Shown here one piece after another: positions 14,305-16,743 of a DNA stretch of 44,952 nucleotides. A model generated the notes under the pieces. That model made no database searches, was not told the origin of the DNA, and saw only the letters and a list, made by a program, of their open reading frames with translations. The stretch's first letter is position 1. Every line of letters starts with the position of its first letter. This DNA comes from Candidatus Pacearchaeota archaeon (lineage in GTDB: Bacteria; Patescibacteriota; Minisyncoccia; Minisyncoccales; GCA-002788555), in assembly GCA_035349995.1 (NCBI GenBank), contig DAOPTN010000001.1, positions 1-44,952 of the forward strand, in the 5' to 3' direction. A program made the translations under genes and the position numbers.

Positions 14305-14465
14305 CACCTCGCGCTCCGCGCGAGAAAATCCCAAATCACAAATTCCAAATAACAAACAAATCTTAAATTCCAATGACTAAAATTCAAAACAGTTTTGAAT
14401 TTTAGTGCTTGGAGATTGTTTGAAACTTGGTGCTTGGAATTTCCTTGTGCGAAGCACAAGGCAGG
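14305..14465 (-). repeat. 23S insertion 1 (helix 63 region by eye) carrying the shared hairpin module
   Basis: It lies between the conserved AAACAGTCGCC...GACCC block and AGGTCTTATTGCGAACTTACG. It starts with CCTCGCGCTCCGCGCGAG and ends with CCTTGTGCGAAGCACAAGG. Confidence 0.8.
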
Positions 14466-15083
14466 TAGGTCTTATTGCGAACTTACGACCACTTTTTTGC
14501 CGAGTTCCTTAATGAGGAATCACCCGTTCACCTTGGTGCTTTTACACCCATCTACCTGTGTTGGTTTGCGGTACGAATACTTTGCTAATAAATCCTACGA
14601 AGTTTTTCTCGGAAGCGAGCTCATTTGAATTTTCAGACAATTCTGAATTTTCTCAACTTTTGAAGTTGTTCCTCATCGAAATGAGAAACTGTCTTACGGA
14701 TTTGCCAATAAGACCTTCTTAAGCAAAGAACGGAAATCCAATAATCCGCTCAAACTACTTCACTTCGTTGCTCCTTCAGAATTAGCAAAGAAGGGTCGGA
14801 ATATTAACCGACTACCCATCCCCCGACACTTTTCAGTGACGAAGTTAGGATCGCCTAACCCTTGGTTGATATCCATTGCCAAGGAAACCTTAGATTTTCG
14901 GTGCTCTGCTTTCTCAGCAGAGTTGCGGTTACTCATGCCAACATTCTCACTTCCCTTCGCTCCACCAAAGCTCACGCTTTGGCTTCAACGCAAAGAAAAC
15001 GCTCCTCTACCATCCTTGTGCTAAGCACAAGGATCCGTATCTTCGGTATTTTGTTTGAGCCCCGTTAAATCTTCAGCGCTCCT

Positions 15084-15143
15084 CTGCCCTCAAAGAGAAC
15101 AAGTTCTCTTCTCGCGCCTCGTCTCATAAATGAGATTTGGCAG
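15084..15143 (-). other. 23S insertion 2 (helix 45 region by eye), ~45 nt extension
   Basis: A CTGCC...GGCAG extended hairpin sits where E. coli has the short GCAGGCCGAC tip. Confidence 0.55.
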
Positions 15144-15703
15144 TCGAATAGTGAGTTGTTACACACTCTTTAAAGGATGGCTACCTCTGAGCCAACCTTC
15201 TATCTGTCTTAGCAGAGAAACTTCTTTTTCCACTTAACAAAAATTTAGGGACCTTAGATGACGGTCTGGGCTTTTTCCCTTTTGACTACGGAGCTTAGCC
15301 CCCGCAGTCTAACTACCTATTTTAATTTTCCAGCATTCGGAGTTTGGTAAGAATACCTACCCGAAGGCACAGTATTCTTTCCAGTGCTCTACCTCCAGAA
15401 AACATAATAGGCGCTAGCCCTAAAGCTATTTCGAGGAGAACCAGCTATTACCAGACTCGATTAGCTTTTCACTCCTTACCACAGGTCATCCCACCGTTTT
15501 GCAGCGCGGACGGGTTCGGGCCTCTCTCTGTATTTCTACAGAGTTCACCCTGCCCATGGTAAGCTCGTCTGGCTTCGGGTCTTTATTTGCCAGTTATTAA
15601 TCGCGCAATTTCACACTTGATTGCTCTATGCCTACACCCTAAAACGGGCTTAGACAAACTGACAAAAAAACTCGTTGGCTCGTTATGCAAAAAGCACGAC
15701 GTC

Positions 15704-15896
15704 ACCTCGCGCTCCACGCAAGAAAACTCTAATTTCTAAACTCTAAATAATTTCAAAGTTCAAATTTCAAAACTCAAAAACTTTTTTGAGAGAAGAAAGG
15801 AACTTCGTTCTTTGATCGCTTTATTTTACTTAAAAAAGATTCAGCTTTAGAGTTTAGGGTTTTAAGTTTAGAGTTTGCTTGTGTGAAGCACAAGGC
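15704..15896 (-). repeat. 23S insertion 3 (helix 25 region by eye), ~190 nt
   Basis: It lies between GCAAAAAGCACGACGTCA and CTCCGTCTCTTTGTAGGTCTATGGTTTCAGGTTC. It starts with CCTCGCGCTCCACGCAAG, ends with GCTTGTGTGAAGCACAAGG, and contains AAAGGAACTTCGTTCTTTGATCGCT, which is shared with the intergenic repeats. Confidence 0.75.
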
Positions 15897-16159
15897 TCCG
15901 TCTCTTTGTAGGTCTATGGTTTCAGGTTCTATTTCAACGGGATCACCTCCCTGCTTTTCACCTTTCCCTCACGGTACTAGTTCACTATCGGTGAGATTAA
16001 GTATTTAGCCTTAGCTGATAGTCCAGCCAGGTTCCCTCGGGGCTTTCGTTTCCCGAGGTACTCAAGAAAGATGGCAAGAAGCATAAAGTTATTTTTATCT
16101 ACTGGACTTTTACCTTCTATGGTTGTCCTTTCCAGGAACATTCGATTAATAACTTTACC

Positions 16160-16341
16160 TAAATATTCTTCCTCAGCAATTTCTCAATTTAAAAAATTGA
16201 GAAAGTTCTGATACCATCTCCTTACAACCCCCAGCCGCACCTCGCTATGCTCGGGCGGAATTTCTAATTTTCAATTTTAAATTTCTAAAAATTTTTGTTT
16301 GAAAATTTGTAAATTCCGTGCCAAACGCAGTGAGGTACGGC
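16160..16341 (-). other. 23S insertion 4 (domain I, near E. coli ~270 by eye), two hairpins, ~180 nt
   Basis: CTCAATTTAAAAAATTGAG hairpin, plus GCCGCACCTCGC...GCAGTGAGGTACGGC enclosing the AT-rich TTTCTAATTTTCAATTTTAAATTTCTAAAAA. Confidence 0.6.
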
Positions 16342-16386
16342 CAGGTTTGGGCTCCTCCCTTTTCACTCGCCGCTACTCAGGGAATG

Positions 16387-16527
16387 TCCTCGCGCTCCGC
16401 GCGAGAAAATCTCAAATCACAAATTCCAAATAACAAACAAATCTTAAATTCCAATGACTAAAATTCAAAACAGTTTTGAATTTGGTGCTTTGTGTTTGTT
16501 TGAAATTTCCTTGTGCGAAGCGCAAGA
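16387..16527 (-). repeat. 23S insertion 5 (domain I) carrying the shared hairpin module
   Basis: 16388..16483 matches 14307..14402 over 96 nt with one mismatch. It ends with CCTTGTGCGAAGCGCAAG. Confidence 0.85.
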
Positions 16528-16577
16528 TTGTTTTCTTTTCCTCCGCTTACTAAGATGTTTCACTTCAGCGGGTGTGC

Positions 16578-16743
16578 CCCTCGCATTCTGCTCAAAATCT
16601 CAAATCACAAGTTCCAAATAACAAACAAATCTTATAAATTACAATGACCAAAATTCAAAACAGTTTTGAATTTTGAATTTGGTGCTTTGTGTTTGTTTGA
16701 AATTTGGTGTTTATGATTTGGTGCTTCAAGCAAAATGCGAGGT
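16578..16743 (-). repeat. 23S insertion 6 (domain I) carrying a diverged copy of the shared module
   Basis: AAAATCTCAAATCACAAGTTCCAAATAACAAACAAATCTTATAAATTACAATGACCAAAATTCAAAACAGTTTTGAATT, closed by CCTCGCATTCTGC/GCAAAATGCGAGG. Confidence 0.8.

Follow-up and report, generated by a model that had tools for sequence, protein, structure and literature searches.

Probable intervening sequence-like hairpin cassettes in the 23S rRNA gene and other stable RNA genes of Patescibacteria

Introduction

Contig DAOPTN010000001.1 (NCBI assembly GCA_035349995.1), analysed here over 44,952 nucleotides and referred to as the window, carries a 23S rRNA gene in which almost the same hairpin sequence stands in several unrelated helices. 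This raises the question of how one sequence came to occupy different places of a ribosomal RNA and by which route it spreads. The original prediction for this DNA had proposed the recent spread or gene conversion of a small non-autonomous hairpin element at helix tips. The core of this proposal is supported by polymorphic near-identity between copies, by mosaic copies and by the exchange of whole cassettes between strains. The cassettes described below sit, in sense orientation only, at solvent-side variable helices of the 23S and 16S rRNA, in the 16S leader and in the RNase P RNA. We favour the view, with a probability of about 0.55, that they constitute a family of hairpin cassettes without an open reading frame (ORF) in stable RNA genes of Patescibacteria. 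This family would resemble the known intervening sequences (IVSs), owe its spread and its homogenisation to recombination together with ectopic gene conversion, and probably undergo processing at its basal duplex.

Hairpin cassettes of the 23S rRNA gene

The host gene was identified as follows.

13160-16894, minus strand: complete bacterial 23S rRNA gene (Rfam RF02541, 2292 bits, model positions 1-2925)

Insertion sites within it were fixed in two ways, by alignment to the Rfam model and by aligning the gene globally, with affine gaps, to E. coli rrlH. Positions in E. coli numbering (Ec) were computed, and the helix names (H10, H12, H25, H63 etc.) are those which we take the E. coli map to assign. 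The gene measures 3735 nt compared to the 2925 positions of the model, and the excess of about 810 nt stems from hairpin insertions. In both alignments this surplus is concentrated in a few large insertions, which are listed here together with the tip of H45.

14307-14461, minus strand: module A in H63 (Ec ~1709-1738), 155 nt, in RNA sense 5' CCUUGUGCUUCGCACAAGG ... CUCGCGCGGAGCGCGAGG 3'
15014-15032, minus strand: tip of H45, CCUUGUGCUUAGCACAAGG, of which 18 of 19 positions equal the 5' end of module A (19 of 19 in other strains)
15705-15895, minus strand: module A' in H25 (Ec ~542-553), 191 nt, with the variant ends CCUUGUGCUUCACACAAGC ... CUUGCGUGGAGCGCGAGG
16241-16345, minus strand: module B in the H15/H16 region (Ec ~270-275), 105 nt, GCCGUACCUCACUGCGUUUGGCACGG ... 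CCGAGCAUAGCGAGGUGCGGC
16388-16527, minus strand: module A in H12 (Ec 229/230, domain I), 140 nt, mosaic
16579-16742, minus strand: hairpin insertion in H10 (Ec ~150-176), in which another base stem carries the module A interior

The repeat that had drawn attention to this gene is real: 14307-14402 and 16388-16483 share 96 nt with one mismatch, and the alignment to E. coli places them, as had been judged by eye, in two unrelated parts of the 23S rRNA, namely H63 and H12. The diverged copy claimed for a third helix was found in H10, where the 81 nt of 16594-16674 are 92.6% identical to the interior of module A. Every insertion had been described as opening and closing with a GC hairpin. This holds for the cassettes in H63, H12 and H25, which begin with CCUUGUGCUUCGCACAAGG and close with CUCGCGCGGAGCGCGAGG in RNA sense (H25 in variant form), but not for the insertion in H10, which has a different base and lacks these end hairpins. 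That each insertion can fold as one long hairpin was confirmed using ViennaRNA for the rRNA sense, with z-scores of -7.5 to -11 against shuffled sequences; the fold of module A in H63 has -78.6 kcal/mol (z -9.1), and the insertion in H10 reaches z -11.3.

The copies do not simply repeat each other. The 5' arm of the H12 cassette equals the 5' arm of H10 (35 nt, 100%), whereas the 96 nt mentioned above, which it has in common with the copy in H63, make up its 3' arm, its apex and its 3' end. Copies at different helices of one gene have been partly overwritten by each other, which results in mosaic tracts. A further link, proposed between the H25 insertion and positions 40147 and 44485, did not survive: what is left of it is one exact match of 14 nt and another, separate one of 13 nt (E 0.03-0.1), and the 25-mer of H25 has no second match within 3 mismatches.

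Architecture of module A

Module A comprises 100-230 nt without an ORF and is defined by its conserved ends, 5' CCUUGUGCUUCGCACAAGGAAAUUC and 3' GGAUUUUCUCGCGCGGAGCGCGAGG. Either end alone forms a perfect palindromic hairpin of 7 bp. At the same time the two ends are complementary to each other, and the minimum-energy fold joins them into a continuous basal duplex of 26-28 bp. This duplex was evaluated in 34 distinct copies of module A from many genomes: at the basal positions 1-28, 91% of the cells are paired and 8 pairs are altered on both sides. Not one of 500 shuffles equalled this pairing, and with shifted partner columns it falls to 33-56%. The covariation is strongest at positions 22-28, which lie beyond the search pattern by which the copies had been retrieved; position 26, for example, is U-A in 15, C-G in 8, A-U in 4 and G-C in 2 copies. 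The ends of module A' add a compensatory change from G-C to A-U at basal pair 12.

Within this duplex, imperfections are kept as well. U-G wobbles are found at positions 4, 6, 10, 19 and 24, and A-C mismatches at position 14 (33/34) and position 16 (28/34). These are exactly the positions which become Watson-Crick paired when either end folds on itself. Here, the 3' hairpin corresponds to the 5' hairpin with two U-A pairs replaced by C-G and with a complementary loop. Variant modules in other lineages use other palindromes in the same design, e.g., CUCGUCCUUUGGACGAG ... CUCGACCAGAGGUCGAG. The arms between the ends are built of degenerate 7-nt repeats and differ strongly between genomes; among strains their length varies owing to indels of 7 and 8 nt.

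Rfam calls no group I or group II intron family in the window at the gathering threshold or in the cassettes at E <= 1, and inside the cassettes it returns weak matches to generic long hairpins (miRNA precursors) alone, far below threshold. By inspection, the two 3-nt bulges on either side of a 4-bp helix that mark the junctions of archaeal-type bulge-helix-bulge introns are not present, the basal duplex being continuous save for single A-C mismatches at positions 14 and 16. A target-site duplication was likewise not found, since the cassettes are flanked not by direct repeats but by both strands of the host helix, which pair with each other (H63 CCUG/UGGG, H12 CAAU/ACAU, H25 GGAG/UGAC, 16S h6 CGAA/UUAG, RNase P UUAG/CAUG). 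No target motif is common to the 5' flanks CCUG, CAAU, GGAG, CGAA and UUAG or to the reverse-complemented 3' flanks.

Exchange of cassettes between strains and site occupancy in a sister species

The same neighbouring aminoacyl-tRNA synthetase protein together with the same 23S rRNA gene was found at ten further loci, five of them from NCBI metagenome-assembled genomes (MAGs), three from JGI metagenomes and two from ENA assemblies, with 23S cores that are about 99% identical. Most of these loci reproduce the copies in H12 and H63 with strain-specific single-nucleotide polymorphisms (SNPs). Since independent assemblies agree and each displays its own SNPs, the repeat is no assembly artefact.

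The flanking protein is identical between strains, yet whole cassettes differ at the same helix. H25 contains either the 197-nt module A' (seven assemblies) or a 99-nt module B (four assemblies: L002, L005, L006 and L009). H63 contains module A (170 nt) in most assemblies and a 149-nt allele based on module B in L003, which is no mis-join, because segments of its arms are missing from the H15/16 copy of the same contig. For H10 four alleles occur between strains, including an unrelated cassette and a variant that is shorter by one 7-nt unit, and for H12 alleles of 144 nt and 152 nt are present. The latter are informative for the likeness between H12 and H63: where the 144-nt allele is present, the longest exact run shared by both helices amounts to 71, 71 and 51 nt (three strains), and where the 152-nt allele is present, to 24-31 nt. 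The near-identity of H12 and H63 looks like a recent conversion tract and not like the copy of a whole element.

A sister species (L028 and L020), whose 23S core is 89% identical, is empty at H12, H15/16, H25 and H63, and its H45 is filled with a 167-nt module A. This disposes of the alternative that the insertions are simply fixed at the same sites throughout a deep clade. In the species of the window, H45 consists of a 19-nt hairpin with the same flanks as the 167-nt module A of the sister species. The loop of this hairpin is polymorphic among the strains compared (UUAG, UUCG or UUUG; L002-L011), and its UUCG form equals the 5' end of module A. Either an inverted duplication of the native H45 tip gave rise to module A, or the hairpin in H45 is a remnant after loss of the module.

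As a side observation, L020 (DAOSAR010000001.1) is labelled 'Candidatus Pacearchaeota archaeon' and has its best match to the bacterial large subunit model. As it also has H10 and H45 cassettes in common with L028, this taxonomic label looks wrong.

Module B and an intron-like insertion

Module B represents a second cassette family unrelated to module A, with the ends GCCGUACCUCACUGCGUUYGGCACGG ... CCGAGCAUAGCGAGGUGCGGC. It is present in the H15/16 region of all strains and additionally in H25 or H63 of some, and relatives of it were found in H45 and H63 of other Patescibacteria 23S rRNA genes.

An extra feature of this population is an intron-like insertion at Ec~2593 (window position ~13450), which varies between strains and is absent from the window. 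Two forms of it were compared.

L004 14127-14843: insertion at Ec~2593, 717 nt, with an ORF for a LAGLIDADG protein of 163 amino acids
L003 15070-15485: insertion at Ec~2593, 416 nt, with a module B hairpin in place of the endonuclease gene

The first 121 and the last 158 nt of both insertions are identical. Despite the LAGLIDADG ORF, the L004 insertion was not recognised as a group I intron by Rfam at E < 0.001.

Distribution of module A across Patescibacteria

The 22-nt 3' end of module A was scanned in one genome per species, for which we estimate about 0.3 chance matches; by design, a match requires the exact 21-22 nt of this end. Here, 10 matches at 9 loci were obtained, and all but one belong to Patescibacteria MAGs, labelled as Shapirobacteria, Liptonbacteria, Paceibacterota and Saccharibacteria, with one under the wrong label 'Pacearchaeota'. 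In metagenomes, the scan added 51 further loci. Five of the 3'-end matches (L015, L022, L036, L041 and L064) lie outside RNA genes; as they lack the 5' end and are located in DNA of 55-75% GC, they were set aside as chance matches.

The remaining picture is uniform. Within these exact-pattern scans, about 60 full copies of module A were recovered, 100% of them inside stable RNA genes and 100% in sense orientation; no full copy was found outside such genes and none in antisense. The range covers about nine sites in 23S rRNA, three sites in 16S rRNA, the 16S leader and RNase P RNA. In 23S rRNA these include H12, the H15/16 region, H25 (ten loci), H45, Ec~1355, H63 (eleven loci), Ec~2200-2224 and Ec~2790, and in 16S rRNA h6 (six loci), ~Ec 213-220 and ~Ec 452-480. 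In the 16S 5' leader, module A is present at seven loci, 33 nt upstream of the mature end. Among the leader copies, a 226-nt module A is near-identical in L026, L037, L048, L049, L051 and L071, which come from several metagenomes.

For RNase P RNA (class A), module A was found in two lineages, whose RNAs were recognised with E values of ~1e-12 to 1e-14, below the gathering score.

L014 5210-5403: module A in RNase P RNA of a Liptonbacteria MAG
L035 ~2900-3049: module A in RNase P RNA of a groundwater metagenome contig

In the Liptonbacteria MAG the module sits between GAGGAAAGUCCGAGCAC-UUAG and CAUGAGUAGCGGGUAACGCC, and this insertion point appears to be the P5/P7 junction of RNase P and no hairpin tip.

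Likeness between copies of one genome was seen repeatedly. In MAG122 the interiors of the copies at Ec~1355 and Ec~2200 are 96% identical, the two copies of L052 are 83% alike, and in the 23S rRNA of one Shapirobacteria locus (L013) most of the interior is common to three helices.

Intergenic hairpin elements

Part of module A had been reported to recur in intergenic DNA, and two hairpin elements are indeed found there.

39906-39963, plus strand: left arm of the first element, heptad repeats, pairs with 40486-40521
40486-40521, plus strand: right arm, inverted partner of 39906-39941, 36 nt, 89% complementary
44542-44814, plus strand: second hairpin element, arms (AAATTCC)n and (TTGGAAT)n around a 173-nt core at 44610-44782

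The claimed recurrence stands for an arm: 39916-39960 matches the arm of module A over 45 nt (91%, E 2.5e-11), and the exact 20-mer CCAAATCACAAATTCCAAAT occurs at 14331, at 39921 (plus strand) and at 40487 (minus strand), where none would be expected by chance. It does not stand for complete modules, of which ~60 of ~60 lie inside stable RNA genes. The intergenic elements lack the ends of module A, the terminal GC hairpins and the apical hairpin, and their core differs; the cores at 39973-40145 and 44610-44782 are 97% identical to each other. The intergenic elements are related to module A only through the arm repeats. A scan with Rfam models, judged by E value, revealed no credible known RNA family in 39500-44952.

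Relation to known elements

The closest known relatives in appearance are the RNase III-type IVSs in 23S rRNA of Salmonella, Campylobacter, Leptospira, Coxiella and in helix 9 of alpha-proteobacteria. In both cases an extended stem-loop replaces a helix tip at sites of the H9/H25/H45 type, the ends are complementary and form a stem of about 26-28 bp, and the occurrence is sporadic between strains and species; for the IVSs horizontal transfer is suspected. Tips of surface helices are occupied here as well, namely H10, H12, H15/16, H25 and H63 in the window and H45 in the sister species. Classical IVSs possess a terminal stem of about 28 bp that is cut by RNase III, and in Coxiella this stem of 28 bp contains a mismatch and a bulge (PMC4990558). 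In contrast to the IVSs, the cassettes form one family with ends shared across phyla, at about nine 23S and three 16S sites as well as in the leader and in RNase P RNA. Several of them in one gene overwrite each other, each of their ends is a palindromic hairpin, and their arms are 7-nt repeats.

For the candidate phyla radiation (CPR), recent surveys report insertions of at least 100 bp in 82% of the 23S rRNA genes (PMC11270868; PMC9297842); across CPR 23S rRNA genes the share with insertions of this size is 77-82%. Short ORF-less insertions are recorded therein as uncharacterised and 'probably' RNase III-type IVSs (PMC11270868; PMC9297842). These 'uncharacterised short ISs' (Tsurumaki et al., 2022, PMC9297842; Tsurumaki et al., 2024, PMC11270868) are similar to the cassettes: they occur in the same organisms, have no ORF, are shorter than 200-250 bp, match no intron model and recur at certain sites, some of which are classical IVS sites. 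In the surveys, unlike in the present analysis, insertions of at least 100 bp were tallied and mapped to their sites. The remark in the original prediction that it knew of no described element of this kind holds in part. Short ORF-less insertions of CPR bacteria are on record, whereas for the shared ends, the module families, the identity across helices, the spread over many sites, the swapping between strains and the presence in RNase P RNA no description was found in the open-access text that was searched, and a full-text search for the end motifs yielded unrelated primer sequences only.

Miniature inverted-repeat transposable elements (MITEs), Rickettsia palindromic elements, repetitive extragenic palindromic sequences and bacterial interspersed mosaic elements (REP/BIME) and palindrome-associated transposable elements (PATEs) derived from IS200/IS605 are small, non-coding, hairpin-forming and multi-copy with conserved ends. 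Like the cassettes, such elements are tolerated in functional genes because they project from the folded product. The cassettes differ from them by a single orientation, by the restriction to stable RNA genes and the lack of dispersed intergenic copies in the exact-pattern scans, by the lack of a target-site duplication, and by the fact that no cognate transposase, Y1 transposase or RAYT gene was seen among the nine ORFs scanned. With the IS200/IS605-derived PATE and REP elements in particular they share hairpins at both ends and the absence of a target-site duplication, but they do not show the conserved target of 4-5 nt beside the left end.

Eukaryotic rRNA expansion segments, according to Hancock and Dover, reportedly consist of cryptically simple, co-evolving sequence. 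They are said to occupy the same helices, to contain slippage-type repeats and to be closer to other segments of one rRNA than to their orthologues. The likeness of the cassettes goes beyond this, since it reaches 96 nt with one mismatch and includes non-repetitive ends, and whole cassettes are exchanged between strains. Finally, group I introns of CPR bacteria with LAGLIDADG endonucleases use the same host genes and show the same presence/absence polymorphism, and one such element is polymorphic in this very population. In contrast to these introns, the cassettes have neither a ribozyme core nor an ORF.

Origin and spread of the cassettes

On the DNA level, the cassettes would be spread and homogenised by recombination without a dedicated transposase. 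Alleles may be replaced between strains or species via the conserved rRNA flanks, and ectopic gene conversion between helices could be anchored on the shared ends or on microhomology of 4-5 nt, for which ACCUG/UGGG at H15/16 and H63 is a candidate. Slippage and template switching would reshape the arms; template switching is able to create and maintain RNA hairpins (PMC8794818). On the RNA level, the cassette would be transcribed within the precursor and project from the helix tip like a classical intervening sequence. As the basal duplex has the size of an RNase III substrate, by analogy to the 28-bp stem of Coxiella, RNase III probably cuts out the cassette at this duplex, leaving a fragmented but working rRNA.

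Several points weigh against this explanation. Five cassettes in one 23S rRNA would upon excision mean six fragments. A model of two local hairpins plus an arm fits the covariation about as well as the basal duplex does. RNase III has little sequence specificity, so that the identity of 22-25 nt ends across phyla, the palindromes and the kept A-C mismatches are left unexplained by it; identical ends, palindromic design and mismatches suggest a sequence-specific partner. For a cassette to settle in a new helix in the first place, gene conversion alone is not enough, and an illegitimate event is required. The combinations of alleles were taken from metagenome contigs, which are possibly chimeras of strains, and the comparison of similarity within and between genomes points in the expected direction with marginal significance (Mann-Whitney p = 0.06, n = 6). 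In 38/38 cases the sense strand of the whole module has the higher stability; for the interiors, the sense strand is no more stable than the antisense strand (19/36, p = 0.79). Since the advantage is absent from the interiors, it stems solely from the shared ends and amounts to one observation, not 38. Strand asymmetry was for this reason ruled out as proof of selection on the RNA level.

The specificity of the ends would be accounted for if the cassettes were non-autonomous transposable elements, whose hairpin ends are recognised in single-stranded DNA by an enzyme acting in trans (a Y1 transposase of the IS200/IS605 type, a relative of the REP-associated tyrosine transposases (RAYT) or another structure-specific recombinase). 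Stable RNA genes would then be favoured targets because heavy transcription exposes the non-template strand. This fits the ends of 19-25 nt, which are identical across phyla despite hypervariable arms, and their perfect palindromic hairpins, an architecture that variant families keep with other sequences and that shows covariation of its own (U4-A16 to C-G or A-U). The number of insertion contexts, which is at least 14 and extends to RNase P RNA, to the 16S leader and, in the case of module B, to an intron loop, is also in favour of it, and so are the lack of a target-site duplication and the one-way orientation (~60/60), which suit a strand-specific single-strand mechanism. We nevertheless consider transposition unlikely, although it is the strongest competitor: the exact-pattern scans found no full copy outside stable RNA genes, the 4 nt beside either end contain no conserved target motif, and the identity of H12 and H63 is a partial tract and no copy of a whole element. 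Nor is a transposase among the nine ORFs of the window that were scanned. In agreement with the original prediction, which had seen no transposase or endonuclease, a Pfam scan of these ORFs returned housekeeping functions only, i.e., AlaRS, TsaD, a class-V aminotransferase, ornithine cyclodeaminase and a class II aminoacyl-tRNA synthetase. A related idea is that a dedicated system of the Patescibacteria recognises the double-hairpin ends, be it a structure-specific recombinase or transposase that acts on the exposed strand of heavily transcribed genes or an RNA-level cut-and-rejoin by which the cassette is removed; this is regarded as speculative and doubtful.

Somewhat less plausible than transposition is that the cassettes are retained as functional expansion segments and have spread because they are useful, with the ends serving as junction or docking site for a Patescibacteria-specific protein in assembly, hibernation or host attachment. 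H25, H63, H79, H98, H45 and H9/10 presumably carry expansion segments in eukaryotes, and the cassette sites coincide with these helices. The kept sequence with its G-U pairs and A-C mismatches hints at specific recognition, and the strict sense orientation fits, too. However, presence and absence, A/B swaps in near-identical strains and the occupancy in the sister species speak against a required function of any one site, and the cassettes in the leader and the intron loop lie outside the mature RNAs. Moreover, most rRNA insertions in CPR bacteria have been predicted, on comparing genes with transcripts, to be introns (Brown et al., 2015, as cited in PMC9297842). Convergent growth of simple-sequence hairpins by slippage, independently at each site and without transfer, would explain arms of 7-nt repeats, strain alleles differing by 7- and 8-nt indels, the period-7 repeats throughout the window and the arm motifs common to the intergenic elements. 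It can produce neither 96 nt with one mismatch at two helices nor identical non-repetitive GC-rich ends across phyla nor the exchange of whole, unrelated cassettes at one helix, and is very improbable. An even smaller chance is given to a collapsed or chimeric rRNA contig. Strain mixtures are present, related contigs (L007, L008, L009 and L011) end inside the 23S rRNA gene, and three MAG scaffolds have gaps of 100 N near the variable intron site. On the other side, the 23S rRNA matches its model end to end, the same gene is carried by the ten loci from independent NCBI, JGI and ENA assemblies, most of which repeat the H12 and H63 copies with their own SNPs, and the cassette family recurs in unrelated genomes.

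Implications

Many short ORF-less insertions of CPR bacteria turn out to be definable families with a diagnostic pair of ends, and can now be annotated, counted and removed from alignments. This is of practical relevance for Patescibacteria: cassettes that are repeated and swappable cause breaks in rRNA assemblies, they can look like chimeras, and they can bias rRNA phylogenies as well as probe design. Furthermore, a natural population is available in which one can follow how rRNA insertions or expansion segments arise, pass from helix to helix, become overwritten and disappear; the origin of IVSs and expansion segments is a question that has been standing since about 1990. The ends shared across phyla, the design of two hairpins, the kept A-C mismatches and the sense orientation point to a partner acting in trans, which could be a processing nuclease, a binding protein or a recombinase. 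If a dedicated system should prove true, modules A and B with their relatives would be a new class of mobile elements, confined to structured stable RNA genes, i.e., rRNAs, RNase P RNA, leaders and intron loops.

Further features of the window

The window is AT-rich, with a GC content of about 31% outside the rRNA genes. Two further rRNA genes are present.

12892-13002: 5S rRNA
31822-33385, minus strand: 16S rRNA, unlinked to the 23S rRNA

The 23S-5S pair (12892-16894) is located about 15 kb from the 16S rRNA gene (31822-33385), with protein genes in between. The 16S rRNA is expanded by about 110 nt in its h9/h10 region (33098-33240, minus strand, Ec ~176-192); this expansion is built of 7-nt repeats (CAAAAAG, ATTTTGA) and does not have the ends of module A. 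In the 23S rRNA, a 58-nt insertion at 15081-15138 (Ec ~1118) comprises two small hairpins and has no relation to module A or module B; all strains keep it, and the sister species has part of it.

The intergenic DNA flanking the alaS-ORF-tsaD block (39906-40521 and 44100-44952) is packed with nested hairpin repeats. These include an inverted pair of 111 nt (40301-40411 and 44401-44511, 91%) and small GC-rich repeat families in the same regions, e.g., CGAAGCAATCCC...GGGATCGCCACG. Tandem repeats with a period of 7 are frequent in intergenic DNA as well as in the rRNA insertions (e.g., 24-60, 24666-24690, 26329-26370, 39915-40035 and 44542-44814), which suggests a genome-wide slippage bias for 7-nt units.

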